Position numbers and translations under genes: made by a program. From an uncultured Gammaproteobacteria bacterium (lineage in GTDB: Bacteria > Pseudomonadota > Gammaproteobacteria > JACCXJ01): a DNA stretch of 64,000 bases. The notes beneath the pieces are model-generated. The model did no database searches and was not told the DNA's origin. It saw only the letters and a list, made by a program, of their open reading frames with translations. Of the stretch, positions 2,242-60,343 are shown piece after piece; the first letter of the stretch is position 1; each line of letters opens with the position of its first letter. The stretch covers positions 96,001-160,000 of the forward strand of contig CAVXTM010000016.1 in NCBI GenBank assembly GCA_963764725.1, in the 5' to 3' direction.

Positions 2242-2302
2242 TTCTATGCCGCATTATGCGCGGTAGCACGCTACGTACGCCGCCGGGGCCATTGTTACCC
2301 CG

Positions 2303-2500
2303 GTTAGGTCGAGGATTGGCGCGCACACCGTAGGCGTCGGTGGGTGAATCCAGTGCTTTCACACCGGCCCTCAGTCCGACCATGCCCTAGCCACGTTTCC
2401 AATCCCCGCCACGACAAACCGAGCGTGCCGATTTCCAGCACTCGGCTTTCCGGTTGACTTCATCATGAGGCTTATGTGACCTATCCATCAGCAGCGCTTT
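2303..2500 (-). mobile_element. Group II intron 3' remnant (domains V and VI), no RT ORF
   Basis: Minus strand reads AAGCCGAGTGCTGGAAATCGGCACGCTCGGTTTG (domain V: AGC triad, GAAA loop, AC bulge; approx 2415-2448). Domain VI follows and ends CTCGACCTAAC at 2303. Confidence 0.8.
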
Positions 2501-2798
2501 CAGCAACCATGCTTACTCCACCTGCCTTCTTGATTGCGGTAAGGTGTCCGGCGGTCCTCGGATCCAGGGACCGAGAGACAGGTGCGGACGTGCCACTCTT
2601 TAGATAACTCGCACCAAGTGTAGCTGCATGCACCGAGTCCGCGCTGACCGCGGCGAGTCGGAGGCGGTGACGAAGCAGCCGTGCTGACTATCAGGACATT
2701 CCGAATAAAACACGACGAGCTCTCGCGCGGACAGGCGTAAAACGCAATGATGGAGAGACATGGGTTGCAGGGTAAAACGCGTAACTACTTGTAATACA

Positions 2799-2854
2799 TG
2801 GCGGAGAGGGAGGGATTCGAACCCCCGGTGAGTTGCCCCACAACGGTTTTCAAG
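2799..2854 (-). pseudogene. 3' half of tRNA-Ser(UGA), att-site-like fragment
   Basis: Minus strand CTTGAAAACCGTTGTGGGGCAACTCACCGGGGGTTCGAATCCCTCCCTCTCCGCCA gives anticodon loop, long variable arm, T arm and CCA. The 5' half is absent. Confidence 0.85.
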
Positions 2855-2989
2855 CGCGTAGCTGCAAAATTATTTGTTTTTTTATGTCAAGCACTTACAC
2901 GCCTAATTCTTTGATCCCTCGAAAAATAGCGTAACAATGATTAATCATATTGCGTCATTCTGGGTGTGACAAGGTTGTGACAAAAAGAC

Positions 2990-3372
2990 CTTTCCTGACC
3001 TCGCGATCCTCGGACACCGTCCAGAGCGGGATCTGCCGCTGCGACCTGGCGTCGGCGCCGAGCTTCGGCAAGCGTTCTGTCAGCACTTTCTCTGCGGCAT
3101 CGAGCGACGCAATATTGATCAGCGCCTGCACGAGGTGCTTCGTGATGACGGGGTCGAAATCGCGCGCGTCCACCCATCGCTGCGCGACGATGCGTGCGTT
3201 ATCGTACTGACGGTTCCTGACCAGCGTCCTTGCCTCGGTCGCCGTAATCGGGCTGCGGCCCGATGTCGGCGACGATCAATTCGACCGCGGCGCCGAGGTC
3301 CCACGGCTGCGCGTCGGGAAACTCGCCGTTCTTGAGTGCCTCGGCCAGCTTCCGTACCGCTTCGCTGTCCAT
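2990..3372 (-). pseudogene. Truncated, frameshifted N-terminus of third gene of the TIR operon (helical, TPR-S-like)
   Basis: ATG at 3372, 2 nt after the hydrolase stop. MDSEAVRKLAEALKNG... shifts frame near 3240 into ...RQYDNARIVAQRWVDARDFDPVITKHLVQALINIASLDAAEKVL and breaks off near 2990. Confidence 0.55.
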
Positions 3373-3374
3373 GG

Positions 3375-4363
3375 TCAGACCTCAAGCGCCTCTCTCAGAT
3401 GCTGGCGCAGCTTCTTGCCGGCGAGATAGTGCGTGATGGTGTGACGCCAGTTGCCCCAGTTCGACTCCTTCACCTCCTCGACGCTCTTGCCGCCGACGGA
3501 CCGATAGTCGTTCGCGAACCTCGGATCGGCGCCGCAGATCGGATCCATCGGATCGTAGATGTTGATCCAGCGCCGCAGGGTGGCCGCTGGGAAATCGACA
3601 GCGTCGCGCCCGGCGGCGATCAACTCCTGCTGCATTTCGCGAACGCCGAGCGGCGAGCCGAGCGTGATCAACGTATCGACCGGCGGGCAGTTGGCGCAGT
3701 TACGCAGCACGTCGTAGGCCACCATGGTCCCCATGCTGTGCGAGACGATGACGACCTTCTCGGCCTGGTTGTGCGCTGACGCCAGGTCGCTCAGCAGGAG
3801 CGAGCGCAACTTCTTGCGCACCTGGAAGCGTTCACCGTCGGCGCGAACGAATTCCTTGTCGAACAGGAAATAGTAGGCCTCCATGGCAGCCTTCTTGATG
3901 ATGGCCTCGCGCACCGGCGACGGCAGCAGTCGCGCGATCTCGCGATCGGCAGGCGCTGCGTCAACCGCCGCGGGCGCGGGCGCCAGTGGCCAGATTGGCG
4001 GCAAGCGAAGCGTTCGAGGAAAGCCTGCTCCCGCGGCGTCACGGCATTCGGCAGCTGCAGATTCGGATCGACGCGGTCGAGTCCCTCGCTCGCGAGCTCA
4101 GCCGACGCATCGCCCTCCTTCTCATAGTACGACCTGAGATCCGTCTCGTAGTTGGTGCCATAGAAGACATCGGCGTAGTAGTTGAGGAAGTGCGGGACAC
4201 CTTCCGTCGCGAGATCGATACCCCCATTCGAAGACGTGAACACAGACGGCATCGGGTCGCCGCGTTCCAACCCCCAGACCCACAGCTCCTTCAGTTTGTC
4301 GGGTGCGGGCTTCTTGGCGAGGCCGTGGCTGAAAATCACGCTGGTAGCACACTTCGCTGGCAT
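3375..4363 (-). CDS. Alpha/beta hydrolase (lipase-like), frameshifted near 4005
   Basis: N-half has the VIFSHGL oxyanion motif. C-half has VIVSHSMGT nucleophile elbow, LITLGSPLG, WINIYDPMDPIC and a terminal His (WRHTITHYL). Split over two ORFs. Confidence 0.8.
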
Positions 4364-4423
4364 GTGAGTTTCTGGATTGAGCTGCCGCACTTCCGCCGCA
4401 ATCGATGGGAGTATGAAATCGCC

Positions 4424-5740
4424 TCAGACCTGATCGCAGTCGGGCAAATGTTCGAACGCCTTGCGCACCAGTGCGCGCTCCTCGGGCGTAGGCTCAAGCT
4501 TCGCCATCAACCGGCACGCCTGTTTCCAGCTCGTCTGGTGCGACCCGGTCTGCGAGCGGGCCATCGCGACGGCAGCGTCGTAAATTCGAGCCGCATCTGC
4601 ATAGTTCTTCTGCATGAGCAGGACTTCGCCGACGGTCGCCGTCATCCAGTACTCGCCCTGGCGCGGCGCGGTACCGACGATCTCTTGGACCCTGGTCGCA
4701 AAATCAGCCGCTCGCTCGAGATCTTCCGGCGTGCCGAGCAGGACGCTTTTCGCCGCTGCGTTGATGCCGGTGTAGTAGTCGTCAGCGGCGAGCCCGAAGG
4801 CTTCCGCGTACAAGTCGCGTGACTGCTTCAAGTCCGGGATTCGATTCGAGCGCTCGTAGTGCTCCATCCAGGTCGAGGCATAGATACCGATCGTCTCCGG
4901 ATCCTTCTCGCCCGACTCGTACAGCTCGCTGACGATATCCTGTGCGGCCAACAGATCCTGTTCCGGCCCGCCACCCCGCGCGCGACGCAGCAGCGCGAGG
5001 GCGCGCAGTTGCTTCGGTCTGATCGCGCGCGGGAATTCCTTCTCGAGCTCCTGCAACATCGCGATCGCCGCATCGTACGCACCGATCTTGGTGAGGCCCT
5101 CCGCGGCCTTGCAGCCCAACGCTGCCGAGACACGCCAGGGCAGGCCGCGCTCGGCGAACAACTGCTGGATACGCTCGGTCCGGCCGTTGCGTATCGCCGC
5201 GCCGATCTGGTCCGCGGCCTTCTTGGACGCCTCGTCGAGGTCGAGCGCGAGGCGCACTGCTTCCTCGCTCATCGGCTGCCCGACCACGGCATGGAGCAGA
5301 CGCAGCAACTCGCCGCCGTTTGGGCCGTCGGGATAGCCGCTGAAATCCATGAAGATCCGCAAGGCGGCGAAGGTGGGGACCTCGGTCTGATCGACCCGCA
5401 CCGGAATGAACCGAAAGGCGCGCTTCTTGCCGCTCGCTTGCTCCATGGTCTGGTATTCGCGGCGCACCCATTCGGAATCACGCGCCTGGCTCGACCACAC
5501 CAGTATCCCCGCCTGGCTCGAGGACAAGGCGTCTTCGAGGCGCGTCACCAATTGATCGCCGCCGACGAGCACACATTGATCGAGAAACACCTTGTGCTTG
5601 TATCTGCGCAGTACGTCGTACAGGTTCAATACCCACGCACGGTTGGCAGATCGATAGGAGAGGAATACGTTCCATTGCTCGCCGCCACTCAAGGGGCGCG
5701 GAGCAGGCACGTGGCTGAGCCATTCTTCTGCAGCGTTCAT
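4424..5740 (-). CDS. TIR domain fused to TPR-S / MAP3K TRAF-binding-like (DUF4071) domain
   Basis: N-terminal TIR_2 motifs WNVFLSYRS, VFLDQ, SEWVRREY (catalytic Glu). C-terminal DPETIGIYA, YYTGINAA, YWMTATVGE motifs. GGAG RBS before ATG 5740. Confidence 0.85.
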   Translation of the reverse strand: MNAAEEWLSHVPAPRPLSGGEQWNVFLSYRSANRAWVLNLYDVLRRYKHKVFLDQCVLVGGDQLVTRLEDALSSSQAGILVWSSQARDSEWVRREYQTMEQASGKKRAFRFIPVRVDQTEVPTFAALRIFMDFSGYPDGPNGGELLRLLHAVVGQPMSEEAVRLALDLDEASKKAADQIGAAIRNGRTERIQQLFAERGLPWRVSAALGCKAAEGLTKIGAYDAAIAMLQELEKEFPRAIRPKQLRALALLRRARGGGPEQDLLAAQDIVSELYESGEKDPETIGIYASTWMEHYERSNRIPDLKQSRDLYAEAFGLAADDYYTGINAAAKSVLLGTPEDLERAADFATRVQEIVGTAPRQGEYWMTATVGEVLLMQKNYADAARIYDAAVAMARSQTGSHQTSWKQACRLMAKLEPTPEERALVRKAFEHLPDCDQV

Positions 5741-5896
5741 TTTGGATTCTCCGGACCTGGAGTCTGCGCCGCGTGTGCAGTAGGCGAGCGCACGCTCGTC
5801 ACTCACGCGATGCTGCGCGCGACCCGGTCACGATGCCCAGATTGAGCCACAACTTGCAGCCCTGACAGTGGACAAAAGTCGCGGTCGGTAAGGGGA

Positions 5897-5925
5897 AGAG
5901 TACGGATGGACCTGTGGGTTGTCAA
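5897..5925 (-). promoter_or_regulatory. Sigma70-like outward promoter in IS91/ISCR end region, facing the TIR gene
   Basis: Minus strand TTGACA-17 nt-TACTCT. Confidence 0.55.
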
Positions 5926-6079
5926 TGACACGAGCCGTCGGTCCAGGATGCGGGATGTTTCGGGCCCTTCAGCCATCCGAAGCCCGGGGATCCAGGGGTG
6001 TTTTGGCCTCTCGGGCGGGTGCCGGCCGACGGAGGCTGTCGGCTCAGGGAGTGGAACCGGGTGGGAGGGGTGGTACGCT

Positions 6080-6243
6080 GGGATCAGGCCATTTGAGTCG
6101 GTGGAATGACCGCGCGGGCGATCGGGGCGGTGCCCGGGCGGACAAGCCGAGATGAGTGAGGATCTGGGCGATGACAGGGGGATCTTCGATGGCGGCGATG
6201 ATCTTCAAGAGGCCGCCACATTGGGGCAGTGCTCCAGGTCGAG
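6080..6243 (-). mobile_element. IS91/ISCR-family transposase C-terminal remnant
   Basis: Reads DLEHCP(frameshift)LKIIAAIEDPPVIAQILTHLGLSARAPPRSPAR, the typical C-terminus of IS91-like Y2 transposases. Confidence 0.75.
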
Positions 6244-6338
6244 GCTTGGCTGGGGAGCGTTTGTAAGGACAGCACCTTCTGACCCGCCCGGGGGAAGCCC
6301 AGAGAACGCCGTAGGGGTTAACGCCAAAGGCAGGATAG

Positions 6339-6488
6339 TTTACGGAGCACGACGTACGCGCTAAGTGTGCCTCCGATGCCGAAAGTCTAGAGCATGCGCG
6401 CCAGCTCTTGGCGCACGCAGATTCTCGCTTGACTGCCCGTGTCTATCGCCGCAAACCGGAACTTGTAAAGCCAGGGAAAGGGGTTTGA
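6339..6488 (+). pseudogene. Tyrosine integrase C-terminal remnant
   Basis: FTEHDVRAKCASDAESLEHARQLLAHADSRLTARVYRRKPELVKP contains HxxR, H and the catalytic Y. An in-frame TAG precedes it; it lies 62 bp from the tRNA-Arg 3' end. Confidence 0.85.
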
Positions 6489-6550
6489 ATCGTACAAATG
6501 GCGTTTAATCGTACAGGTGCTAAAAAAATATCGCTGTAACTTATTGATTT

Positions 6551-6627
6551 TGGCGCGCCCGGAGAGATTCGAACTCCCGACCCCCTGGTTCGTAGCCAGG
6601 TACTCTATCCAACTGAGCTACGGGCGC
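6551..6627 (-). tRNA. tRNA-Arg(ACG)
   Basis: GCGCCCGTAGCTCAGTTGGATAGAGTACCTGGCTACGAACCAGG...GTTCGAATCTCTCCGGGCGCGCCA, 77 nt cloverleaf. Confidence 0.97.
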
Positions 6628-7066: not shown

Positions 7067-7219
7067 CTCCTGCCTCCTCCATTATCACTAGCGTACTTGA
7101 CGCCTGGAATTGTGCTTTGTTCCCCGCCTTAAAGCAAAGGGCTCCCTGCCCTACATTCACCAGTTTAACCCGTACAAACGTTAAATGCGAGATGAATTGC
7201 TGAGCTTTTAACTGCTTAG

Positions 7220-7362
7220 TCCTACTGTGTTACAAGGCGATCAAGGGATGCCATGCGAGGGGAATCGGGCGAGAAAGCGGAGTTTACACGGCAGTAAATG
7301 AGCATTTCGAGCCCGATGCCAACGAAGCAGGGTGCCCTTCAGCAGCTTGTAACACAGTAGGA
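7220..7362. mobile_element. 143-bp MITE with 17-bp terminal inverted repeats and TTAG target duplication
   Basis: TCCTACTGTGTTACAAG (7220-7236) and CTTGTAACACAGTAGGA (7346-7362) are perfect inverted repeats. TTAG flanks both sides (7216-7219, 7363-7366). Confidence 0.85.
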
Positions 7363-7372
7363 TTAGGTAGGA

Positions 7373-8726: not shown

Positions 8727-11369
8727 TCACGGCGCGATTTGGCCCCGAACCCAGTCGCTCACCGTGGCGAGCGCAGCTTTTAATTTGTCCGGTTCACTGC
8801 CGCCGGCCTGAGCAAAGTCGGGCCGTCCCCCACCCTTGCCGCCAACCTGTTGGGCGACGAAATTCACCAAATCGCCGGCCCTCACATGGCGTATCAGATC
8901 CTTGGCCACGCCGGCCACCAAGAGTACTTTTCCAGATTGCACGCTTGCTAGCACGATGACCGCGTGCGAGAGCTTATCCTTCAAGCGATCCATGGCCGCG
9001 CGCAACGACGCGGGATCGGCGTCATCGATGATCTCCGCGAGCACCTTGACGCCGGCGATATCGACCGCGGCCTCGGAAAGATCGCGTCCGGTTTGAGTGC
9101 TGAGCCTGGCGCGAAGTTGCTGATTCTGTTTTTCTTCGTGCTTGAGGTTCTGCAACAACTGCTCTACTCGTACGCCGAGCTGCTCGCGCGGCGCTCTCAA
9201 GAGATCCGCAATCTGCTGCAGTTGCTGGTCGCTCTGGGTCACCCAGGCGAGCGCCCCCTCCCCTGTCTGGGCCTCGATGCGACGGACTCCGGCCGCAACC
9301 CCGGTCTCCGACACGATCTTGAATAAACCGATGTCACCGCTATGCCGCACATGCGTACCGCCGCATAGCTCGACCGAGAAATCCCCTATCTTGAGCACCC
9401 GCACCTGTTCCTCGTATTTCTCTCCGAAAAGCGCCAGGGCGCCGCTCTCAAGAGCCTGGCCTACGGGCATAATCACCGTCTCGACCTCGCGATTGGCGCG
9501 GATCTCGCGGTTGACCAAGCGCTCCACCTCATGCAACTCATCGGACTCGAGCGGCCCCGTGTGTGAGAAGTCGAAGCGCAAGCGCTCGGGCGCCACTAAC
9601 GAGCCCTTTTGGACGACATGCGTGCCCAGAACTTGCCGCAAGGCCGCGTGCAACAGATGCGTCGCGGAATGATTAAGCGCCGTAGCGCAGCGTAAGGCCG
9701 GATCGACCTGCGCGTGAACGGACTCTCCTTCTCGTAGGACTCCCCTCGTAAGCGATCCGAGGTGCAGAGTGGCGCTGGCTAGGCTCTGGGTATCCGAGAC
9801 GCGAAACAGGGCCTCGCGTGCGCAGAGATCCCCAATATCACCCACTTGTCCGCCGGCTTCGGCATAAAACGGTGTTCTATCGAGAACCACGACCCCCTGC
9901 TCTCCGGCTTGCAGCGCGGGAACCCGCTCTCCCTGCCGATATAGCGCCACGACCCGGGACTCACTCTTTAACCCCGCGTAACCGGTGAACTCGCTCCCCG
10001 AGACGCGCAGGGGATCATCGGCCGCAAGTGCGGGCAAGAGCGCCTCCATTGCCGCCGGCTGCCCGAACTGGCTGGCCGCCCGCGCCCGCTCGCGCTGTTG
10101 CTCCATCTCCCGCTCGAATCCCTCCATGTCCAAGGTCAAACTGCGCTCACGCGCGATGTCGGCGGTGAGATCGACCGGAAAACCGTAGGTATCGTAGAGT
10201 TGAAACACGTCGCGGCCCGGGATCACGCTCCCAGACAGATCAGCAATTGAACGCTCCAGAAGCTTGAGCCCGAGATCGAGCGTCTCGGCAAAGCGCTCCT
10301 CTTCCTGTTTCAAAACCCGCTCAATGGCAACTCGTCCCTCCGCTAATCTCGGATAAACCGCACCCATCTCGGTTGCGAGCACCGCTACGAGCCGGTGAAA
10401 GAAAGGTTCCCGTAACCCGAGCCGACGCCCGTGCCGAACGGCCCGACGGATGATGCGCCGGAGCACGTAACCCCGGCCATCGTTGGAGGGGACCACGCCC
10501 TCCGCGGCGATGAAGGCGCAGGAACGGATGTGATCGGCAATCGCCTGAACCGAGGTCCGATGCACGGCGTCTTTGTCGCTTACCAAAGCGATGACCGCGC
10601 CCGTCAGGGCGCGGAACACATCGATATCGTAGTTACTGTGGACCCCTTGCATGACGGCGGCGATGCGCTCCAAGCCCATCCCGGTATCGACCGAGGGATG
10701 TGGAATCGGGTGCAAGCGTCCGCTGTCATCGCGGTCATACTGGGTAAATACCAGGTTCCAAATCTCCACATAGCGATCCCCGTTCTGCTCAGGGCTTCCG
10801 GGCGGCCCACCCGCGATCGCCGCGCCGTGGTCGAAAAAGATCTCCGAGCAGGGACCACAGGGGCCCGTCGCGCCCATGGTCCAGAAGTTGTCTTGTTCCC
10901 CGCAGCGCGATAGGCGGCGCGTGTCGACCTTGATCTCATCGAGCCAGATCGAGGCCGCCTCGTCGTCGTCCTGGAACACCGTGATCCAGAGCCTTGCGGG
11001 ATCGACGCCCAAGGACCCGGTCAAAAACTCCCAGGCGTAGTGAATCGCCTCGCGCTTGAAATAATCACCGAAGCTGAAGTTTCCAAGCATCTCGAAAAAG
11101 GTATGGTGGCGCGCGGTGTAACCGACGTTCTCGAGATCGTTGTGCTTACCGCCGGCGCGCACGCATGCCTGGCAGGAGACGGCGCGCTGAAAGGGGTGCT
11201 GCTCGCGTCCCAAGAAGACGTTCTTGAATTGCACCATACCGGCATTGGTGAACAAGAGCGTCGGATCGTTGGCCGGCACCAGCGGTGAGCTGGGAACAAT
11301 CGTATGCTCTCGCGCGCTAAAGAAATCCAGAAATGCCCGCCGGATCTCGGCGCTGCTCTTTATCGACAT
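8727..11369 (-). CDS. alaS: Alanine--tRNA ligase
   Basis: [61 protein letters not shown]. Confidence 0.98.
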
Positions 11370-11377
11370 AGACTGCG

Positions 11378-11502
11378 ACGCAACCAATGTTATACAGACC
11401 GACTTCAAGAAATCTGGAAGTCCCTTCTCCCTCAGAGAGAAGGCTAGGATGAGGGGATATCTATCCCCTCATCCCCACCCTCTCCCGGGTGGGAGAGGGA
11501 GT
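11378..11502. repeat. REP/REPIN-like palindromic element, copy 1
   Basis: Paired hairpins TCCCTTCTCCC..GAGAAGG and CCCTCTCCC..GGGAGAGGG. 11378-11457 is an inverted near-copy of 17406-17485. Confidence 0.8.
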
Positions 11503-11542
11503 TTATCGAAAGGCCTAAATTTCAAATATTCTTGGCTAGGAT

Positions 11543-13400: not shown

Positions 13401-13484
13401 GTTAATCTAAATTAATGCCGCGTCTGTCATACACTTGAATGAACTGCGGCGATCCCGCGCGTCGGCTTGAGTGCGATGTTAGCC
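13401..13484 (-). other. Degenerate integron attC-like site
   Basis: Minus strand GGCTAAC (contains the gene's stop codon) ATCGCACTCAAGCCGACGCGC...CGCGGCATTAATTTAGATTAAC. Left arm is typical, right arm decayed. Confidence 0.55.
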
Positions 13485-48673: not shown

Positions 48674-48675
48674 AA

Positions 48676-49266: not shown

Positions 49267-49350
49267 GCGCTCGAGGTGCGATTTGCGGACGTCTCGATCG
49301 GGCCCTCGGACTCCTCAGCGAATGAGGGGCGTGCGGCGTCGGGCACGCGA

Positions 49351-50839: not shown

Positions 50840-50865
50840 GCCCATCGAGCGAAATGGAGGAGAAT

Positions 50866-51627: not shown

Positions 51628-51664
51628 AGGGGTGATCCTGAGAGGCGGCTTTATCCGCCGCGTT

Positions 51665-51856
51665 TTGCTCTCGGTCGGTGGCGACGCCGCCTTGCAAGTA
51701 GCTGTAACCTGCAATCAAGAAATTGATGCCTACCGGCGTGTTAGCATAGCTCCTGGGTTCGAGGTCCTGTGCATCTGCGCCGCAGGCCGCCACGGCGAGC
51801 GTCGCGGCGGCGAACCGAACGATCCAGACGCCGTCGAGTCGGGAAATCGTCCACAT
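51665..51856 (-). pseudogene. Truncated outer-membrane channel (Phenol_MetA_deg-like) N-terminus
   Basis: Signal peptide, then AQDLEPRSYANTPVGINFLIAGYSY; similarity ends after about 60 aa. Confidence 0.6.
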
Positions 51857-51872
51857 CCGGCTGGTTACGTTG

Positions 51873-52877
51873 TCAGGGAAGACCGGCCCTGATCCGCCGG
51901 GAGAAGTCCGGCGCCTGGTCCGCGGCCCGGGCCGCTGCATTGATGTGCGCGCGCCGCTTGAGTTCCTCGAAGGGCAGGCTCTGGTCGAGACGTCCCCGCT
52001 CGTAAGCGTACTCCGGGGCATACCCGCTCAAGAGCACCTTCCATGAGTAAGGGATGTGGCCGGGGTTCACGGCCGCATGGGTCAGGATCATGGTGGTGCA
52101 GTTGGTCGTGAGCGTGTTGTAGAAGCGGGGGTGCTCCCGCAGCTCGTTGATGTCGCGCAGGTAGTCGAGGAAGATGCGGCGGCCGTTCTCGATCGGGCCC
52201 ATCACACGGAACAGGTAGACCTCTTCCGGAGGCGAAGTCCGGTAGTTGGTCCGCACCCGGATGACGTCGCGCTCGTCGGCGACGATGTACACCAGCTCGT
52301 ATTGCCGGAAGAAGCCAGGGAGCGTCGCATAGGGCCTCGTTCGGTCCTTGCGCGCCTCGATGGAGATGGCCAGGTGATCATCACCGAATCCGAAGGTGAC
52401 GAACAAATGGGCGATGGCCGGGCCCATCCAGTAGGCGGCGACGAGATCGACCCGGTCCAGGCGCCGGAGGTCGAACGTGCGGTCATAGTAGGCGGGCGTG
52501 AAGTCGGTCTCCGTGCGGTAGTCGAAGTTCCGGATATTGTGGACGGTCACGCGATCGCCGTCGAAGGTGGCATAGGGCAGCACGGCCGCCTCCGGCTGCC
52601 AGTCGCGGTCGTTTGACGGCGTCGCGCTCCCCCAGACGACCAGCACCAGCGCGAAGGCCGCGGCAAAGCCGATGACCGCGGGCCGGCGTGCGCGCCGAAC
52701 GAACCAGGCCCCTAAGGCTAGCAGCCCGATCGCAGCAAAAGTCCAGGCCTCTACCGTGCGAACCTCACCCGATCCCGGCCCCAGGTAAAAAAGGACGAGG
52801 GCGCCCCAGGCGGTGGCACCGGCGATAGCGAGGCCGGCCATAACCAGAGCGATGATGGTGCCGATCCGGCGCCTCAT
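51873..52877 (-). CDS. DUF4105 (Lnb N-terminal-like) membrane protein
   Basis: Three N-terminal TMs, HNIRNFDYR, IAHLFVTFGF, FYNTLTTNCTT; ATGA overlap with upstream gene. Confidence 0.8.
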   Translation of the reverse strand: MRRRIGTIIALVMAGLAIAGATAWGALVLFYLGPGSGEVRTVEAWTFAAIGLLALGAWFVRRARRPAVIGFAAAFALVLVVWGSATPSNDRDWQPEAAVLPYATFDGDRVTVHNIRNFDYRTETDFTPAYYDRTFDLRRLDRVDLVAAYWMGPAIAHLFVTFGFGDDHLAISIEARKDRTRPYATLPGFFRQYELVYIVADERDVIRVRTNYRTSPPEEVYLFRVMGPIENGRRIFLDYLRDINELREHPRFYNTLTTNCTTMILTHAAVNPGHIPYSWKVLLSGYAPEYAYERGRLDQSLPFEELKRRAHINAAARAADQAPDFSRRIRAGLP

Positions 52878-54823
52878 GGGAGCGGGTCTTCCGGCGCCGC
52901 CGCATGCTCGAGGAGGATGCGCCGGATCTCCTCGATGACCTCGGGCTGCCCCTGGCACGAGTGATCCGACCGGACCACCAGCTCGGAGACCGCCTCGTCG
53001 ATGTGGGCGCTGCGGTAGGCCACGACGCCATCGTCTCCCTCCTCCTCCGGGCCATCACCCTTCACCGCGATAATCGAGTGCGCCGGAATCCGGGACGGAA
53101 CCGGGATGGATTCTAGGATTTGGAGGCCAGGGTTCTGCGGGTTCATGTTATCGACCGCGGTTGGCGGCCGACGGAGGGCCGCGACCAGCTTCTCGTCCCC
53201 GCTCGTCGTGGCGGCCTGGGCGAGCTCGCCGAACACCGCCACCGGCAAGGTCACGAGCCACGTAGCAATCGCCCCTAGCCGGCCGGTGGCGAGAAGGGCC
53301 CCGTGGTGGGGCGTCGCCACGAACACCACCCGCTCGACGAAGGGCAGGGAGGTGAAGAACGCAGACTGCCGCAGGAGATCGCGGGTCTCGGAACTGAGCT
53401 TGACCGCATCGAACGGCTTGCTGCTGATGCGGTCCCAGAATCGCGTCCCGCTATCGATTGCGGTAAGCTTGGTCAAGAGCCCCCCCTGGCTATGGCCGAT
53501 CACGACCATGCGGCGCAGCGCCGAATCCTTACCCTCGGGATCGAACTCCTGCACCGCAGCCGTCAGCGCGGCCCGCAGCCGTCCGGCCGAGTAGCCGATC
53601 GGGTTACCGGTGTCGTACAGAAAAACCCAGATCTGAAACCGCTCGCGGATCCGGGGATCGCCCTCGAGCTCGTTGATCAGCTCGGCCCAGCGCAAGGGGC
53701 TCGATGCCGTCCCGTGCACCAGCACCACGGGGATCTTCCCGGGCCGGTACGGGTGGAGCGTGAAGAGGCCGTCCTGGGCCCGGTCGCGCGGGATCAACCC
53801 TCGGAAGATTCCGCCGCGGAGGAACCCGGCGATCTCCATGTCGTAGATTGGGTTTCCTTCCAGTTGATAGGCGAGCGCTGCCGTCGGATCGGACTCGAGG
53901 GGCTGCTCCCGCCCATCCACCGTCACGGTCGAGGCCTGGTCCGCGGCATATAACTCGAGACGCCCACGGATCTGCCCGCTGGCCAAGCTTGCCCGCGCGT
54001 GATCGAAACGCAGCAGCGCGGTGACCGGGACCTTCGTGCGGGGTCCGAGGCGTTCCGACCCGACGACCTTTGCCGCCGCCTGTCCCGTCGCCAGGCTCGC
54101 TGCCAGAGGGGCGCCGAGGCCGGGGCTGCGGTAGCGGTTCCTGAGGCCTCGGACCTCGAGGGTCGTCGTCGAGACGAAGCGATCTAGCCGGTAGCCGCCC
54201 CACGTCAGGGCGGACTCGTCCAGGGTGACTCGGAGCGTCCCGAATGGGAGCTTATGCGCGCCCGACTCCAGCCGTACCTCCCCCTCGTCGCGCCCCGCGC
54301 TCAGCCCCTGGGCGACGGCCTGGTTGTAAAGATCGTACGCCAGCCGCAATCGGGGATCCGAGGGCTGGATCCGTATGCCGGCAGCGTCTCCCGGGAACAG
54401 GAGCGCCCAGCCATACACGGCCGACGCCAGGAAATGCGCGCGGTCGCCCGTGCGCTCGGCGTGGAGAAAGGACAGCTCCGCCAGCGCGAATAGGCGATCC
54501 TCGTCACCTGCCGGACTCAGCCCGCCATGCAGCTCGGCGAGGACCTTCTCCGGCTCCTCGTCGAACCGATCCAGGAGCCCGAGTCGCCTGAGCACCATTT
54601 TCGAGGGCTCCGACGGTTGGCCCACCGAGAGCGCGCTCTCGGTGTGAATGCGATAGGCGGTCTGGATGTCCACGGGCTGCACGCCGACCGGTGTCGCGCA
54701 TCCCGAGACAACCAGCGTGAGGCCGGTGAGCCCCAGAATCCACAGAGTAATTGGCGCGAGATGCGCCGTCGATCTGCCGAACCAGTCGCGGCTGAAATCG
54801 ACTAAGGTCGGTATGAAGTGCAA
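52874..54823 (-). CDS. Alpha/beta hydrolase lipoprotein
   Basis: VVSGC lipobox, PVVLVHGTAS, IGHSQGGL, DGVVAY, DHSCQ. Confidence 0.85.
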   Translation of the reverse strand: MHFIPTLVDFSRDWFGRSTAHLAPITLWILGLTGLTLVVSGCATPVGVQPVDIQTAYRIHTESALSVGQPSEPSKMVLRRLGLLDRFDEEPEKVLAELHGGLSPAGDEDRLFALAELSFLHAERTGDRAHFLASAVYGWALLFPGDAAGIRIQPSDPRLRLAYDLYNQAVAQGLSAGRDEGEVRLESGAHKLPFGTLRVTLDESALTWGGYRLDRFVSTTTLEVRGLRNRYRSPGLGAPLAASLATGQAAAKVVGSERLGPRTKVPVTALLRFDHARASLASGQIRGRLELYAADQASTVTVDGREQPLESDPTAALAYQLEGNPIYDMEIAGFLRGGIFRGLIPRDRAQDGLFTLHPYRPGKIPVVLVHGTASSPLRWAELINELEGDPRIRERFQIWVFLYDTGNPIGYSAGRLRAALTAAVQEFDPEGKDSALRRMVVIGHSQGGLLTKLTAIDSGTRFWDRISSKPFDAVKLSSETRDLLRQSAFFTSLPFVERVVFVATPHHGALLATGRLGAIATWLVTLPVAVFGELAQAATTSGDEKLVAALRRPPTAVDNMNPQNPGLQILESIPVPSRIPAHSIIAVKGDGPEEEGDDGVVAYRSAHIDEAVSELVVRSDHSCQGQPEVIEEIRRILLEHAAAPEDPLP

Positions 54824-54900
54824 CTCGTTATTGGCGGGCCGAGCGCGAGAAAATCTTCAGTGGCAGCCATATTTTCTAGAAATTTTGCCGCACCGACGGT

Positions 54901-55800
54901 TTAATATCCCGAAGGCGGAGCCACTACCATATAGCTGACGCCACCCCCTCCATAAGCCTGGGTGTACCAGGTCGAACCGCACTGGTAGTACGTCACGCCG
55001 CTGACAACGATCACGCTAGGCGTGCAGGGAAGGCTCGTGTAGCCCGCCGGTGGCGGCGTTGTGTATACCACCGTCGAGGGGGTAGTGGCCGAGGTTCCCG
55101 CCGCGTAGCCTGCCATGGCACCTACTGCCGCTGAGCCGATCGCCACGGCCGCGACTTCGCCACCGTCCCAGTCATCGTCGTCATGGTAGTAGCCCCCTCC
55201 GTGGTAAGCGCCGCCGTAATAGTGGTCGTCCGCGTAATTTTGCCGGTTGGACTGTCGTTCGGTGTAGCCTTGCTGACGGGCGTCGGTCCTTTCGCTATAG
55301 CCCTGCTGCCGGGATTCGACATTCTCATTCGATGCTTGCTGCCGGCTTTGCTGCTGCTGCGAGCGCGATTGCTGTGCTTGCTGCTGCTGTTGCTGCCGGC
55401 CCTGTTGCTGCTGGGAGCGCGACTGCTGGGCCTGCTGTTGTTGCTGTTGGCGACCGGAAGACCTCGCTTGCTGGTTGCTGGAAGCGGTCTGCTGGGTCTG
55501 GGAGCGCTGCGCGGACCTCTGCGAGTAGGCCGAGCTCCCGGAGCTCATCGAGCTAGACCTGGACGACGCTCCGCTGGCCCTGGACGACGCACCGCCCGCG
55601 CGGGACGAGAAGCTGCCGCTTGCAGCGGCACCACTGCGTGAAAAACCGCCGCCTCCGCCACCGCCTCCGCCGCCACCTCGCGAGAAACCGCCTCCGCCCC
55701 CGCCGCCTCCACGACGGGCGACAGCGTCATCCACGGACGCTATTAGTAAAACGATCGTGGCCGTAATAGCGGTAACGATCAAGTAAGGTTTGGTATTCAT
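54901..55800 (-). CDS. Exported Gly/Ser/Gln-rich low-complexity protein with DUF6515-like C-terminus
   Basis: Signal peptide, poly-G, QQQQQAQQSRS repeats, YYQCGSTWY..YMVVAPP. Confidence 0.75.
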   Translation of the reverse strand: MNTKPYLIVTAITATIVLLIASVDDAVARRGGGGGGGGFSRGGGGGGGGGGGFSRSGAAASGSFSSRAGGASSRASGASSRSSSMSSGSSAYSQRSAQRSQTQQTASSNQQARSSGRQQQQQQAQQSRSQQQQGRQQQQQQAQQSRSQQQQSRQQASNENVESRQQGYSERTDARQQGYTERQSNRQNYADDHYYGGAYHGGGYYHDDDDWDGGEVAAVAIGSAAVGAMAGYAAGTSATTPSTVVYTTPPPAGYTSLPCTPSVIVVSGVTYYQCGSTWYTQAYGGGGVSYMVVAPPSGY

Positions 55801-56657
55801 TTCTGTCCTCCGGTTTGCTTCGGGGTTGTCGCTCCCTGAAGCGCGATTTGCGGCAACTGTGCGAGGAAGGAGATCTTCCGTGCACCTTCGGGCGGCGTGA
55901 ACGCGAACTGGGAGTCCTGGACTTCGGGCGAGAAGTTCCAATCGGAAAACTCTGCCCGGAACTGGGGCTGGCCTTCCGCATTCTTGTAGGTCAATACCAC
56001 TCGGAGCGGCAACGGCTGAGCGCCCTCCGCGATCCAGACCTGATAATCCACCGTCTCGGTGCGTCCCGCCAGGTGATGGGTCGGTCTCCCCTCGATTTCG
56101 GTCCTCTCTACATAATCGAGCGACCGGGTGCGGCGTTGGATCTCCTCCGGAAACCGGCTCAGCAAGAGCGCAGCGAGCGGCAGCCGCATGTGGAGATCTT
56201 TGAGGAAATACACGACCGCCTCGTCGATGCCTCCGGGTTTGGATGCTTGAGCATAGACGTTCTGCGACGGGCTGAACACCGTGATGTTCTTACCGTCGTA
56301 GAGGACGAGATGCTGCTCGCCGTCGCTATGCTCCGCCTCGACGCGCAGACCGTTCGGCCGGCTCACGGTGATCTTCCGCATCTCGCCGAATTCGATCTTC
56401 TGGCCGGATCCCTGAACCACGTCGTAATTGCCCTGGACGTTCACACTGAAACGCGGGGCCTGGGCCAGGTAGCCGGCCATGCGCAGGAGGATATCCTTCG
56501 CCTCCTTAGGCTCCGCCACCACTTGCGCCGCCGGTCCCGGGGTAGCCGCAGGCTCCGGGCGCGTTGCTGCCTCCTCGGCCGCACAGCCGGACAGAACCAG
56601 AAGCACCGGCGCACACAGCGCCGCATGCAGGGCCCACCCACAACGTACTATTTTCAT
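55797..56657 (-). CDS. DUF2092 (LolA-like) lipoprotein
   Basis: LSGC lipobox, VSRPNGLR, VDYQVWI..PLPLRVVLTY, FAFTPPEGA. Confidence 0.85.
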   Translation of the reverse strand: MKIVRCGWALHAALCAPVLLVLSGCAAEEAATRPEPAATPGPAAQVVAEPKEAKDILLRMAGYLAQAPRFSVNVQGNYDVVQGSGQKIEFGEMRKITVSRPNGLRVEAEHSDGEQHLVLYDGKNITVFSPSQNVYAQASKPGGIDEAVVYFLKDLHMRLPLAALLLSRFPEEIQRRTRSLDYVERTEIEGRPTHHLAGRTETVDYQVWIAEGAQPLPLRVVLTYKNAEGQPQFRAEFSDWNFSPEVQDSQFAFTPPEGARKISFLAQLPQIALQGATTPKQTGGQK

Positions 56658-56971
56658 AGCGGATCTCTCCTTGCTGCGTTCGTTTTGAGGACTGATGCAA
56701 TCGACCCGTCCGCGCCTCTTCACATTGTAGAGGTGAGGGTCGGCCTGCCGCAATCCCTTACGGTCCCGCAGCCTATCCCGGGGCAAGACCCGGACGAAGC
56801 CGGTGCCAAGTACTTGATGCGGCGTGTGCTACTCTTTGCGAATGGGGCGCCCGCCGTGGGGCTGATGTCGTCGCCAGCAACGCCATCTCCCCACAGGAGT
56901 TGGGGCCGCTTCAAGTTCCAAATAAGAATACCTCGGACGCAGCTCAGGCCTCAGTTGGGAGATCGCGAGAA

Positions 56972-58078
56972 ATGAGTAAGTTGAACACGACAGCCATGGC
57001 CCTGATGGTGACGCTTGTGTGCTGCACGCGGATAGCTACCGCCGATCCCATTGCTGGCTCCGGGAGTGACCCTCTACGAACAGCATCGAGCAAGCCCTTT
57101 CTTCTCGCGCCTCCGGAGGAAGCACGTCCCGTCGTGGTTCGCGCCCGCTTTGAGGTTCATGGCATCAATGAGATTAACGACGAGGCGGAAACGTTCGAGT
57201 TCGCAGGCGTACTCACGCTCAAGTGGCATGACCCACGCCAGGTCTTCGACCCCGCTGCTGTGGGAGTGGGTGAACAAATCTTCCAGGGCGGCTACCAGTT
57301 CAACGAGCTCTCGACTGGCTGGTATCCGCAGGTGGTCCTCGTCAACGAATCTGGCTTGTACCAGAAGAACGGAGTCGTGCTGCGCGTACTGCCGGACGGA
57401 ACCTCGACTCTGATCGAGACATTGAATGCTGCTGCGAAGGCAGAGTTCAACATGAGGCGATTCCCGTTCGATGGGCAGCGCCTCGAAGCCGTGTTTGAAG
57501 TCCTGGGGTTCGATCGGGATGAGGTAGTGCTGCAAGCGGAATCAGATGCTGCCAGTTCCTTGGCCAGCGAAGTTCGGATTCCTCAATGGACCATCACAGG
57601 AGCCAGTGTGTCTGTACGGGATCGCTCCGCATCCTACGCCGGACGCCGAGGGGTTTCGTCAGCGTTCGTCGTGAGCGTTGATGTACAGCGAGAGTCCTTT
57701 TATATGAGCCGACTCGTCATCATTCCTCTCGTTGTGATCGTAGTGCTCTCGTTCTCGGTGTTCTGGATGGATCGGTCGTCGCTCGGCGATCGGCTCAGTG
57801 TCTCGTTCATCGGGATCCTGACCGGCGTCGCCTACCAGATCGTGATGAGCGAGCACCTGCCCCGCATCTCGTATCTCACGTTCATGCACGGGTTTCTAAA
57901 CCTCAGTTTCCTGACCATGTGCGCGACAGTCGTAATCAACCTGGTGGTGGGCACGCTGGATAAGCAGGGAAAGAGCGAGCTTGGAGATCTCATCGATCGA
58001 CGTTGTCGATGGGGATTCCCTCTCATGTACTTCGGACTCAGCCTCGTCATGCTCGGTGTGGCGATGCTGTTGTTCTAG
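56972..58078 (+). CDS. Prokaryotic pentameric ligand-gated ion channel (ELIC/GLIC-like)
   Basis: Signal peptide; LKWHDPR, WYPQVVLVN, Pro-loop MRRFPFDGQ; four TMs including M2 DRLSVSFIGILTGVAY and LPRISYLT. Confidence 0.88.
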   Translation: MSKLNTTAMALMVTLVCCTRIATADPIAGSGSDPLRTASSKPFLLAPPEEARPVVVRARFEVHGINEINDEAETFEFAGVLTLKWHDPRQVFDPAAVGVGEQIFQGGYQFNELSTGWYPQVVLVNESGLYQKNGVVLRVLPDGTSTLIETLNAAAKAEFNMRRFPFDGQRLEAVFEVLGFDRDEVVLQAESDAASSLASEVRIPQWTITGASVSVRDRSASYAGRRGVSSAFVVSVDVQRESFYMSRLVIIPLVVIVVLSFSVFWMDRSSLGDRLSVSFIGILTGVAYQIVMSEHLPRISYLTFMHGFLNLSFLTMCATVVINLVVGTLDKQGKSELGDLIDRRCRWGFPLMYFGLSLVMLGVAMLLF

Positions 58079-58155
58079 CCATGAACCTAACCTTGACGAC
58101 TTGGATTAGAGCCCGGTGAAGTGACCAACCAATCAACCACTGAAAGGGCACAACC

Positions 58156-59644
58156 ATGAAGAACAGAACTATGCTCCCTGCCCTCAGCCTGGGCATTGGC
58201 CTTGCCGTCGGCGCCGCCGCAACATTCTTGCTGGCAAGCACAGAAGATACGGTGGCGCAGGTCGGGGCTGGAGCCGACCAGCTAAAGAAGCTCGCCGCGG
58301 GGGGCTACGAAACGGACCCAGAGGTCCTGAAGGCTATTGCGACCGGTGGTACACCCATGGGCCGCTGGAAGGAAGGTCTCACCTTCGACGGGGTCGCACC
58401 GATGCCCTGGCTCAAGAGCGCGGCGAACTGGTTCCCGAAGACGGAAGAGGTCCAGCCCGACGAGATCCGCGTGACCTTCATGGGCAGTTCGCCGCTGCCG
58501 CGGCCCGGACAGATGGGCACCTCGGTTTACGTCGAGCTCGGCAACGGCGACAACTTCATCTTCGACATGGGGCCGGGCTCGATCGCCAACTACCTTGCGG
58601 CGGGCGTGCCGCTCAATCGTCTGAACAATATCTTCCTCACCCACCTGCACTGGGACCACGTCGCCACCGTGCCGTATGTCTACATGTTCGGTGCGTGGGC
58701 GGGTCGCTGGCACGAGACGTTTCGCGTCACCGGACCGTCGGGTACGAAGCCCGAATACGGTACTCGCTACATGATGGATCGGATGAAGGAGATGCTGACC
58801 TGGCATCGCGACCAGCTTCGACGAGTCGCCGATCGGCAAAGGCTTCGATATGGAGGTCAATGAGTTCGATTTTCGCGACGACGGCGGCGTGGCCTACGAG
58901 AAGCGCGGCGTCAAGATCACGCACTGGCGCCAATCGCACACCGAGGACGGCGCCTCAGCCTATCGCCTCGACTGGAACGGCATGAGCGTCGCCTTCACCG
59001 GCGACGGCCGTCCGAACTCGCTCACCATCAAGTACGCCGAGGGAGTTGACCTGCTGATCACGGAAGTCCAAGCCGAACTGGTAGCGATCAGCGCTACGGT
59101 GAATGGCGTGTTGCCCGTGATTGGTCGCAACACCGTGGACATGGCCCACAATCCCGGCTACGCGGCCGGATACCTGTTCAACAAGGTGAAGCCGCGCATG
59201 GCCATGACCACGCACATGGGCTACGACGCCTACTCCAACCCGGAGCTGCTGGCCGAGATCCGCCATCACTACAACGGGCCCTTCCATTTCGGCGCGCCCG
59301 ACATGGTGGTGGTGAACCTGACGCGCGACAAGGTCTGGGTACGCGATGGCGTGGTGCCAGATTACCCGAGCATGGCGCCGCCGAAGTTCGACATCGCCGC
59401 GATGGGCGGGTTGGTCATTCCGGCTCCGCGCAACAAGCGTGAGGACTTCCAGGAGCAGTCGATTCGCGACGCCGAGATTCCGCCGGACGATTACTACCCG
59501 AAGGGCTACAAGCCGGACCTGATTCCGGCCTGGCCAACCAGCAAGCCCATCTTCATCCCGGCCGACAATGTGCCGCCGGCTTGTGGCTGCACGGCAAGCC
59601 TGCGGCGGCCGCGCAGCCTGGAGCGGACGCCAAGGATGGGGTGA
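58156..59644 (+). CDS. Exported MBL-fold hydrolase (RNase Z/arylsulfatase-like), frameshift near 58812
   Basis: VTFMGS, FDMGPG, THLHWDH, AYRLDW..FTGDG, LLITE. Confidence 0.82.
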
Positions 59645-60014
59645 CGAAGAAGTGACCGCGATCTGGCTAATGCCCCGGCGGGCCAATCGCCGACACTGCG
59701 CAAGGGCAGTTGCGGCTCCCGCGCGAGGAGGGGAATATCACCGCTTCCCCAAAGCTTACCGCCCAGACTGATAATCAACCGCAAGCCCATCCATCAACAG
59801 ATTTCCTAGATTGCCTTCCCTCGGACCTACCGCTCGTATACTGGACAGCTGGACAGACCAGTGACGCCGCTGACCTCGGCGACCAACGTCTCACGCGGCA
59901 ACCCAGCCACTCATGGCGGCCTTAGAAATTAGCCATGAGTCGCAATCCCGTTACCACGGTGGTATCAATCCGGCTTAGGCTGGGGGAGAGGAATTGAAGG
60001 TTCGGCGTAAAATG

Positions 60015-60119
60015 GAGCCATGGCGTCAATTCAAAGTTGTAGTAGGTCTCCCCGTCATAGCGGTCGTTCAACCCGCGGAGGATGCCTTGGAACTGGTCGG
60101 TGAGCTCGACGTAGTAGAA
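60015..60119 (-). pseudogene. Possible OprB-like porin C-terminal snippet
   Basis: FYYVELTDQFQGILRGLNDRYDGETYYNFELTPW resembles the porin YNxxxTPW motif. Confidence 0.35.
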
Positions 60120-60121
60120 CC

Positions 60122-60180
60122 CGCCGATGGACTGGACGTTCGCACGGAGTCGTTGCTGGCGCTCGTGAACCCATCGAGCG
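60122..60180 (+). repeat. Chimeric copy of 47709-47750 (pqiB) joined to 50832-50851
   Basis: 41/42 and 19/20 identities, sharing GCT at the junction. Confidence 0.85.
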
Positions 60181-60343
60181 CACAGTTAACGATTGTATTG
60201 AACCGGGCGGACTGGTAATCTCGCGCGGCGGCTTTGGTGGTGGGGCTTCCGGTCGCTCGCACCGTTGAGGAGCGCGAACCTGACGTGCACGCTGAACAAG
60301 GCACGACCAACCGAAGATTCAGAAACAGAAGAGGAGATCGAAC

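Follow-up and report, generated by a model that had tools for sequence, protein, structure and literature searches.

Integrative islands linked to tRNA genes carry an integrase and att remnants, and insertion with long target duplication was reportedly described by Nobusato et al. in 2000. Furuta, Abe and Kobayashi (2010; PMC2853133) characterize inserts of <20 kb that are flanked by direct repeats of >30 bp aligning once in the empty genome and that contain no mobility genes. Jackson et al. (2009; PMC2935791) describe how single crossover of a circular intermediate moves the old end of a gene downstream (Rhs), and Kuo and Ochman (2009, PMC2817411; 2010, PMC2916853) deal with deletional bias and the loss of pseudogenes in bacteria. 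Hoff et al. (2018; PMC5869714) report that nonhomologous end-joining (NHEJ) repair in Streptomyces is accompanied by integration of genomic DNA at the break. Here we describe the intergenic gaps of a 64,000-nucleotide stretch, G000:C16:96001-160000 (hereafter the window), from an uncultured gammaproteobacterium, G000. An earlier note, made from the sequence of the window, had read its gaps as a mosaic of short gene fossils trimmed by an unusually active end-joining or illegitimate recombination process. The observation was partly confirmed, in that scraps of lost or duplicated genes and small mobile repeats are real. As to their origin, we consider it rather probable that accessory DNA turns over rapidly, by ordinary processes, at hot spots, and that the gaps are the record of this turnover in a genus tolerant of much non-coding DNA.

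The G000 assembly is 4.21 Mb long, in 19 contigs, with a G+C content of ~60%. Its RecA is closest, among named records, to that of an unclassified gammaproteobacterial metagenome-assembled genome (85%), and related sequence occurs in cave and soil metagenome runs, the best of which holds 0.34 of sampled words. The congeners compared were G003, G004 and G006, the class-level relatives were G013 and G016, and X1-X4 are metagenomes with related contigs. G001, G002, G005, G007-G010 and G012 are unpublished genomes, on which rest the count of genomes with Ku, some of the evidence for the ligD-ku empty site, the OEP and PIN gene copies in G001 and some copies of miniature inverted-repeat transposable elements (MITEs). 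Coordinates are window positions unless a contig is named. The gene map was made with Pfam on 150 of the 156 open reading frames (ORFs) of ≥110 aa, six nested ORFs being dropped, and it left 23 gaps of ≥60 bp, amounting to 13,379 bp or 21% of the window. The gaps were translated in all stop-to-stop frames. The resulting 374 peptides of ≥25 aa and the gap DNA were compared with the whole G000 genome, 269 peptides of ≥33 aa were scanned against Pfam, and the NCBIfam scan covered 150 of the 193 that are at least 42 aa long. The parents of the gap pieces were named, and the gaps were then compared with G003, G004 and G006.

The clearest case is a variable insert of 9.3 kb (50852-60121), which holds genes for bestrophin, Lnb_N, a hydrolase, DUF2092, pLGIC and MBL-fold proteins together with a piece of an outer-membrane protein (OMP) gene, a truncated paralogue and a porin piece. 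The porin piece (59868-60124, minus strand) is an OprB-type remnant comprising the last ~67 codons and ~55 bp of 3' flank (OprB positions 321-372 of 372, E 3e-6). Its DNA is identical at 220 of 258 positions to the porin gene at C16:242256-242513 and is shared with G003:C338. It overlaps by 3 bp (CGC) a 42-bp copy of pqiB at 60122-60163 (plus strand), which matches 47709-47750 at 41 of 42 positions in the same orientation and occurs in G003 at C338:1788-1829. After an overlap of GCT with the pqiB copy, a 20-bp copy of 50832-50851 follows at 60161-60180 (plus strand; 19/20, by eye). The source of this copy, 50832-50851, is the last sequence preceding the insert, and in G003 the copy is followed by the same bases that follow 50851 in insert-free contigs. 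Such contigs, from related populations (X1, X3, X4), join 50851 directly to 60189. The region 47709-60180 is thus built as H (47709-50851), insert (50852-60121) and H', followed by the flank, where H' is a second H that lacks ~3.1 kb internally. The 42 bp of its start and the 20 bp of its end are left of this eroded right-hand target duplicate, and these copies, at 60122-60180, lie 12.4 kb from their source. No deletion could duplicate part of a gene that is still in place. The pqiB piece is a duplicate of a resident core gene that arose with the insertion of the 9.3-kb segment, and not a deletion remnant of an acquired gene. A collapsed in-situ tandem duplication was also considered as the origin of the pqiB piece and rejected, since what adjoins the end of the duplicate is native flank rather than the insert once more. 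No recombinase family was found in the 9.3-kb insert, neither among its ORFs of ≥110 aa nor among the gap peptides within it, and none of the 17 PF00589 matches of the genome lies there.

The truncated paralogue in the insert (54888-55763, minus strand) is a 297-aa open frame of a 540-aa ORF without a Pfam family, with 78.6% nucleotide identity to C16:214232-215119 and 74% amino acid identity over 223 residues. In G003, 334 bp stand in place of the 3.0 kb at 56742-59742 (pLGIC, MBL-fold and unknown genes), and one X4 contig passes from 56741 to 60104 by way of 12 different bases. The stretch 57272-59927 is poorly covered in X2-X4 and is uninformative there.

The locus is an insertion with long target duplication. 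The insert is shorter than 20 kb and free of integrase and transposase, and its flanking direct repeats exceed 30 bp, are unique and are single in the insert-free relative. It differs in that the cargo is not a restriction-modification system and in that the right-hand repeat has lost most of its length. A further difference is that there are ~35 candidates in one genome, two of them resolved against empty sites. It also resembles the displacement of Rhs C-terminal ends, as new DNA stands behind a gene and a redundant gene end stands downstream in direct orientation, although the genes concerned here (pqiB, ligD, recB) are ordinary ones, not polymorphic toxins, and form no arrays of alternative tips.

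ligD/ku is the second case resolved against empty sites, and only these two of the ~35 candidates are resolved. ligD and ku are adjacent in G004, G006 and G008, the last an unpublished genome; in G000, at the locus C15:274500-285500, they are split by 6.8 kb. The insert carries genes for a zf-PARP protein, an SDR and a split acyl-CoA ligase/acyltransferase and ends in a 147-bp copy, 94% identical, of the 3' end of ligD. This gives a 147-bp repeat 6.8 kb apart with an empty site in G004, G006 and G008, as expected of an insertion with long target duplication. The copy of the ligD end before ku is also found in G003 contigs. In the order of events that we propose, segments without integrases would enter by insertion with long target duplication, most simply when a circular DNA that includes some of the adjacent core sequence recombines by a single crossover. 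The far end of the insert would be left with a partial, redundant copy of the core gene, which would then erode, as the pqiB piece may have done, and such debris may persist through drift or weak selection.

Gene pieces were also surveyed in the whole genome. A tblastn search of the own proteome against weakly coding or non-coding DNA gave 571 loci from 273 parents, and 496 of these loci cover <60% of the parent. The window is below the average of the genome for such fossils, with 5 loci against a mean of 7.0 per 64 kb, and 81% of 57 windows hold as many or more. Short repeats with two copies on the same contig, 0.2-50 kb apart, were direct in 51 cases and inverted in 3, and the same-contig pairs of a gene piece and non-coding DNA were direct without exception (32/32). 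In 4.2 Mb we counted 35 gene-piece pairs, all direct and on the same contig, 0.4-27 kb apart; examples are C2:129078-129232/132791-132945, C15:276961-277107/283872-284018 and C4:7220-7412/34429-34621. The unit length is at most 7.0 kb in 31 of the 35, and in 11 it is 5.9-7.0 kb. A detached 3' piece is more often found downstream of the gene, and a detached 5' piece upstream of it (15:5 versus 5:10, Fisher p 0.019). A 3' piece of recB, 3.6 kb downstream of recB, brackets a Fic-RHH module that was found in no relative searched. Two agents of these pairs were tried and rejected: a tyrosine integrase, as none of the 17 Phage_integrase (PF00589) matches lies inside the pair intervals, and one mobile-element family, as the 14 intervals compared are unrelated. 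The direct pairs suggest a bolder idea, which we hold only as a long shot, that a genus bearing Ku and LigD gains accessory DNA unusually often without integrases, through linear fragments of ≤~7 kb that are circularized by end joining and enter by single crossover via the core DNA that they carry. If so, each entry would produce a copy of a gene end, detached from its gene but in cis and in direct orientation, and a sharp upper edge at ~7 kb would reflect a packaging or uptake size, for example that of a particle like a gene transfer agent.

The earlier note had named assembly artefacts as a possible source of the junctions, and mis-joined strain variants in a metagenome-assembled genome could in principle produce both the junctions and the duplicated pieces. 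The assembly is in 19 contigs, the copies of duplicated pieces differ by 1-12%, as strains do, and the unit lengths stop abruptly near 7 kb, possibly reflecting read length. The window also contains five gene-splitting frameshifts, all private +1 insertions outside homopolymers: in baeRF (37375), CTI (43719), pqiB (47921), NMT1_3 (50557) and the MBL-fold gene (58811). Those in CTI, pqiB, NMT1_3 and the MBL-fold gene are missing in all or most related contigs, and those in baeRF, CTI, pqiB and NMT1_3 are missing in G003. These five frameshifts may be consensus errors and should not be counted as fossils. The list of frameshift positions also includes 47021. At 45683-47011 two PqiA domains stand in different frames with no indel between G000 and G003, which is either a frameshift common to two species or a real arrangement of two ORFs. 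Against the artefact explanation, the chain of porin piece, pqiB copy and copy of 50832-50851 is identical base for base in G003:C338, an independent assembly of another species; therefore, the junction is neither an artefact nor recent. The copy of the ligD end before ku likewise recurs in G003, the tail of the RND gene, the integrase stump and the intron tail described below recur in G003, G004 and G001, and the empty and filled MITE sites are clean. We regard mis-assembly as highly improbable, more so than any other explanation weighed here.

An explanation by unusually active end joining or microhomology-mediated illegitimate recombination, such as NHEJ by Ku and LigD, would have acquired genes trimmed to stumps of 50-250 bp. 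The genes of the pathway are present in the family. Ku (PF02735, E 1.4e-51) is encoded at C15:284088-284627 and occurs in G000 and altogether in 13 of 15 family genomes, 7 of the 13 being unpublished. A LigD-like ligase domain (PF01068) is found at C15:275206-275773, with domain positions 1-149 and 166-204 in two frames; an error in the consensus may account for this split. G000 also has RecB and MutS. The remnants are short yet 80-98% like their parents, 3-bp overlaps occur at two junctions, other junctions have 3-12 unmatched bases, and capture of genomic DNA during NHEJ is described in the Streptomyces work (PMC5869714). Nothing links any of these genes to the junctions.

The junctions themselves argue against this explanation. 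Overlaps were measured from overlaps of high-scoring segment pairs, for which an overlap of ≥3 bp is expected by chance at 7.4% of junctions, with a null mean of 0.77 bp. Near-clean indels against the congeners gave 29 rows: 12 multi-copy inserts, 2 long overlaps and 15 single-copy indels. The multi-copy rows have duplications of 3-15 bp, some rows being one insert seen against several relatives; overlaps of 3-8 bp are those of multi-copy MITEs and are target-site duplications. One of the long overlaps is a 167-bp duplication in G003. Among the 15 clean single-copy indels, only three have ≥3 bp (6, 4 and 3 bp), most having 0-2 bp, and the 3-bp case resembles an insertion sequence. Microhomology at the junctions is therefore not supported. 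The overlaps seen at junctions in the window are 3 bp long (CGC between porin and pqiB, GCT within the eroded duplicate); so short and so few, they do not differ noticeably from chance expectation. Three apparent signs of end joining were explained away. The 9-nt "filler" at 50851->60189 is native flank that has diverged in G000 and equals the bases after the duplicate in G003. Permissive scoring had produced the "17-bp overlap" at a 4.8-kb difference that follows the carbonic-anhydrase gene; inspection by eye shows ~4 shared and 2-3 unmatched bases. The "119-bp deletion" at 39782 reflects the insertion of a hairpin element into G003 rather than any loss from G000. The captured pieces are direct and in cis in 32 of 32 cases, whereas end capture should give random orientation, so that neither the junction spectrum nor the orientation of the pieces fits. 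Moreover, fossils common to several species point to slow erosion, and the LigD frame is split in G000. We therefore regard unusually active end joining as distinctly improbable. What stands of the earlier inference is the excess of remnants, the structural turnover and the presence of Ku and a LigD-like gene; an unusual activity of end joining or microhomology is not supported.

Other gap pieces are stumps of accessory genes. Ancestral accessory genes may have been lost differently in sister lineages through one or a few deletions, leaving short pieces such as those of helicase, vapBC and OMP/bestrophin genes. Three collinear pieces of one SNF2/NOV_C-type helicase gene lie at 27311-27557 (minus strand), where comparison with the whole G003 gene requires at least two internal deletions. 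27311-27416 corresponds to G003 L027:3385-3494 (82%), 27517-27552 to 4937-4972 (36/36), and the sequence from 27558 onward to that from 5133 onward. The G003 helicase ORF is at L027:3419-5146, with SNF2-rel_dom/ResIII, and the paralogue of G000 itself is at C9:16935-19169. This is a case of DIFFERENTIAL loss: G003 has kept an MTase-GmrSD-SNF2 set upstream of ilvD, and G000 only the three bits of helicase. G003 also has an intact PIN-RHH (vapBC) pair in the slot that separates ilvD from the carbonic-anhydrase gene, where G000 has 168 bp with a weak partial match to G003.

Downstream of NMT1_3 the two species have reciprocal stumps (50836-51871 versus L029:4376-5750, G003:C183). G000 has a whole bestrophin gene and a 189-243-bp OMP piece, and G003 has a whole OMP gene and the first 126 bp of bestrophin. 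The G000 piece is an internal part (~codons 95-158) of a Phenol_MetA_deg outer-membrane channel gene at 51629-51871 (minus strand), of which 51675-51863 is 94% identical to L029:4660-4848. The whole 407-aa OMP ORF of G003 is at L029 4376-5596, and a G000 paralogue is at C16:212145-213182. Judged from these sequences, G000 and G003 have each lost a different neighbour of the OMP/bestrophin pair. Because G003 keeps the fuller genes, the helicase and OMP pieces show that some gap pieces are real deletion remnants. As in the cited accounts of deletional bias and pseudogene erosion, dead genes are trimmed by deletions here, of which the helicase pieces in their collinear order and the reciprocal stumps of OMP and bestrophin genes are examples; unlike in those accounts, the stumps persist across species, which favours slow over fast removal. 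Several fossils are shared with another member of the genus; therefore, erosion is slow and not unusually active.

An N-terminally truncated gene of the PIN (VapC-type) family lies at 42307-42603 (minus strand; Pfam PIN positions 36-116 of 120, E 1.4e-7). It is a 99-aa frame closed by stops that lacks the full domain with its N-terminal acidic residue. It has 34% identity to the whole PIN ORF at C10:117632-118123 and a 94% copy at G001:C214. The last ~32 codons of an RND permease gene (39544-39639, minus strand; NCBIfam AcrD positions 995-1028 of 1036, E 1.1e-4) lie upstream of an intact OEP gene in a region common to G003 at 86%. Pfam ACR_tran found no RND piece in the gaps, and only the full-length NCBIfam model recovered this one.

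With one crude self-trained ORF caller, whose values are comparable only among themselves, the coding fraction is 0.80 in G000 (median gap 150 bp) and 0.82 in G003 (147 bp), versus 0.87 (87 bp) and 0.889 (77 bp) in the class-level relatives G013 and G016. The lineage thus has an excess of non-coding and remnant DNA. Because density is low in both G000 and G003, the excess is a trait of the genus. By the comparison with related genomes that the earlier note itself had proposed, this sharing of the excess within the genus counts against its inference for close relatives, but not for distant ones. Structural turnover is high: against the congeners, 68 structural differences were found in 222 kb aligned, and in ~40 of them one stretch of unique DNA is replaced by another.

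The low coding density of G000 and G003, together with the 496 partial-copy loci, would also be expected from genome decay under weak selection, in which pseudogenes build up in general, the frameshifts are real and the fossils are late decay with no special mechanics of insertion. In line with this, RND genes elsewhere in the genome are split into up to 9 frames, and deletional bias and pseudogene loss are described in published work (PMC2817411, PMC2916853). However, the five frameshifts of the window are all +1 insertions, whereas real decay is deletion-biased, and the core genes are intact and 91-96% conserved in relatives. The parents with the most partial copies are partly artefacts of ORFs running into MITEs, plus transposases, and the geometry of pairs that are all direct and in cis is left unexplained. 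We consider general decay unlikely, although less so than end joining.

Several points weigh against the reading that we prefer, rapid turnover of accessory DNA. The gap DNA includes ~3.1 kb of verified remnants, ~1.3 kb of repeats and ~6.3 kb that is unexplained; this ~47% matched nothing, so that the account covers only half. The coding fractions come from a single caller. The circular intermediate is our construction, and no circular form was observed. Of the 35 pairs, 10 have the piece on the wrong side for the model. Per 400 kb there are ~5 direct pairs in G000 and 4 in G003, but 2 in either of the class-level relatives counted, so that the G000 rate is only ~2.5 times that of the class-level comparators, and these are small counts. 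At all three further loci (3/3) compared in five relatives, no connected flanks were found and no empty site was shown. At C7:57397-64517, G003 has one copy of the repeat with the intervening genes elsewhere on the same contig, indicating a rearrangement and not a simple insert. Finally, G000 may carry consensus errors, and none of the metagenome runs proved to be its source sample, the best containing only a third of the sampled words.

Remains of mobile elements are concentrated beside tRNA-Arg and tRNA-Ser, where elements may have landed and decayed, leaving the stump of an integrase gene, one end of an IS91 element, the tail of a group II intron and an att piece of tRNA-Ser. A 3' fragment of a group II intron with domains V-VI lies at 2299-2522 (minus strand; Rfam RF00029, 44.9 bits against a gathering score of 40, 2330-2450 minus) and has a 94% copy at G004:C57:1664-1887. 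Neither RVT_1 nor any other Pfam family was found on the frames flanking the intron RNA, so that it is a fragment. The end piece of an integrative element (2775-2984, minus strand) contains an att-type remnant: 2799-2854 is the 3' 56 nt of tRNA-Ser(TGA), 98% identical over 56 nt to C1:24689-24744, inside the tRNA-Ser(tga) gene C1:24657-24744. Within the same piece, 2781-2984 is 86% identical to C1:54800-55023, with copies at 86-94% in G004:C207 and G001. An IS91-family end fragment including the last transposase codons (5885-6242, minus strand) forms one 358-bp unit found at 82-88% in the family relatives G010, G011, G012 and G009, and over 6111-6242 it shares 76-83% identity with the end (3') of ORF C9:93500-95122 (Y2_Tnp, Zn_Tnp_IS91). 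The C-terminal 47 codons of a tyrosine integrase (6339-6485, plus strand) have 81% amino acid identity to the end of a 379-aa Phage_integrase ORF, C6:20714-21850.

The integrase stump lies 65 bp from tRNA-Arg(ACG) (6551-6627), and synteny with G003 breaks at 6530, beside this tRNA. Together with the 56-nt copy of the tRNA-Ser 3' end, these features are like those of tRNA-linked islands; unlike such islands, the window locus is a debris heap from several elements without an intact integrase. Only the 47 C-terminal codons of a tyrosine integrase were found, and no att pair is defined, none having been searched for. Left of tRNA-Arg (1-6529), G003 has glnA-secretin instead, which in G000 is on C15. 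In G000, this region carries genes for TIR-TPR-S and a PGAP1-like hydrolase along with the mobile-element debris, and has the look of a defence-type island.

MITEs and palindromic hairpins, which are small and non-autonomous, would insert between core genes, and they make up all or part of at least 7 gaps. The repeat at 7212-7370 has 36-nt terminal inverted repeats and a TTAG duplication, with an empty site with a 4-bp overlap in G003, G004 and G006 and 96-97% copies in G008 and G002; it shows every feature by which a MITE is recognized. A palindromic hairpin repeat between alaS and recX (11372-11546) has 42-nt arms and 19 own-genome matches, and its site is empty in G004 and G006. The same family occurs between guaA and guaB (17256-17494; 27 own-genome matches, 35-nt arms at 89%), where G004 has 31 bp. 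At 25627-25883 a 257-bp insert, empty in G003:C51, includes a 78-bp multi-copy repeat (25634-25711) with dozens of copies genus-wide at 79-94%. Before degP, a multi-copy repeat of ~100-137 bp (40020-40121) has many copies at 76-91% in its own genome and in relatives, and G003 has 38 bp in this place. A hairpin-repeat insertion of MITE type at 61103-61241, with hairpin arms and 17 own-genome matches, is bypassed in related contigs, which jump from 61102 to 61242, with 6 bases fitting either side. These repeats are like MITEs and REP-like (repetitive extragenic palindromic) hairpin repeats in being multi-copy and non-coding, in having inverted repeats and short target duplications, and in varying between close relatives. 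In G003, an insert of ~0.77 kb at L029 (G003:C183) 9679-10585, corresponding to window 46897-47034, lies between the two copies of a duplicated 138-bp stretch from the pqiA/pqiB junction; it consists of a hairpin repeat and a repeat also found in G000 at C16:200044-200641 and C12:294269-294905.

A census of the 23 gaps shows how far the mosaic picture holds. The earlier note counted at least ten gaps made of abutting pieces of unrelated genes, and only three or four qualify: 2242-3374, 5807-6550, 59645-61453 and perhaps 39412-40122. A remnant is held firmly in 8 of the 23 gaps and weakly in 1, and some gaps hold pieces of one single gene. Pfam matches of gap peptides also revealed csrA and recX, intact small genes within "gaps" of the first map. 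Eight of the 11 fossils named were real, namely integrase, IS91, helicase, RND, VapC/PIN, outer-membrane channel, porin and pqiB; DsbC was weak, and DUF1156 and Panacea were not found. The possible thioredoxin-fold (DsbC-like) fragment at 30630-30755 (minus strand) matches Pfam Thioredoxin_2 at E 8.7e-4, with 20 bits versus a cut-off of 27, and has no NCBIfam match. The DUF1156 profile gave 4 matches in the genome at E≤1 and none in the window. Panacea gave a single match (39671-39733, minus strand, E 0.16), which we rejected as a fossil. Further matches in the gaps were set aside as chance or low-complexity hits: in Pfam, Transposase_29 (7.9e-4), TPR_14, HEPN_RiboL-PSP and NOMO1, and in NCBIfam, AAC(3)-XI (0.0085), DNA polymerase III tau and ExtJ. 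The group II intron fragment and the 56-nt 3' piece of tRNA-Ser(TGA) were absent from the first list. All kinds of remnant found here are already known.

The core genes around these gaps are, from the left, those for a TPR protein, a hydrolase and TIR-TPR-S, tRNA-Arg, tRNA-Ser, lysC, alaS, recA, ligT, cinA and tadA. The middle of the map has guaA, guaB, xseA, cytochrome c, GDPD, DAO, pgpA, SLT, an AAA_31 protein and ilvD, followed by carbonic anhydrase, MipA, RND-MFP, baeRF, OEP, degP, CTI, pqiABC and NMT1_3. Bestrophin, Lnb_N, hydrolase, DUF2092, pLGIC, MBL-fold and AI-2E genes lie on the right. Between recA and ligT, a 169-aa ORF without a family (13479-13988) has a 90% copy on an unrelated contig of G009, which belongs to another genus. 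The recA-ligT slot is 0.9 kb long in G006 and 3.8 kb in G003, where it holds DUF2442, BOF and a DUF5615-DUF433 pair. The OEP gene and 93 bp upstream (38005-39504) have a second copy 58 kb off, at C16:196094-197593, with 99.4% identity. G003 is without any gene at the second site, and G001 has an 83% paralogue beside the same neighbour; the second copy may be either an ectopic copy or a product of gene conversion. At G000:C16:480711-483821, an RND permease gene is read in ~9 pieces in different frames, and other RND genes, on C11, C19 and C16, fall into two or three pieces. In G003, a 76-bp, 96% copy of an internal part of ilvD (window 27726-27801) lies at L033 (G003:C51) 1865-1940, adjoining a truncated AAA_31 gene and a DDE_3 transposase; the real ilvD of G003 is on another contig.

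Taken at face value, the mosaic of fossils would have meant a repair or deletion process specific to this lineage. The checks show a textbook mix instead, in which mobile repeats stand beside mobile elements in decay, genes lost differently between lineages and inserts with long target duplication. The window provides a cross-validated example of an insert without an integrase that leaves a scrap of a resident core gene. In view of the porin/pqiB case, annotators should therefore not take every gene scrap for a dead acquired gene. The frameshift "pseudogenes" of the G000 assembly also call for caution, as they may be consensus errors. The low coding density throughout the genus and its many direct, in-cis pairs of gene pieces may merit comparative study.

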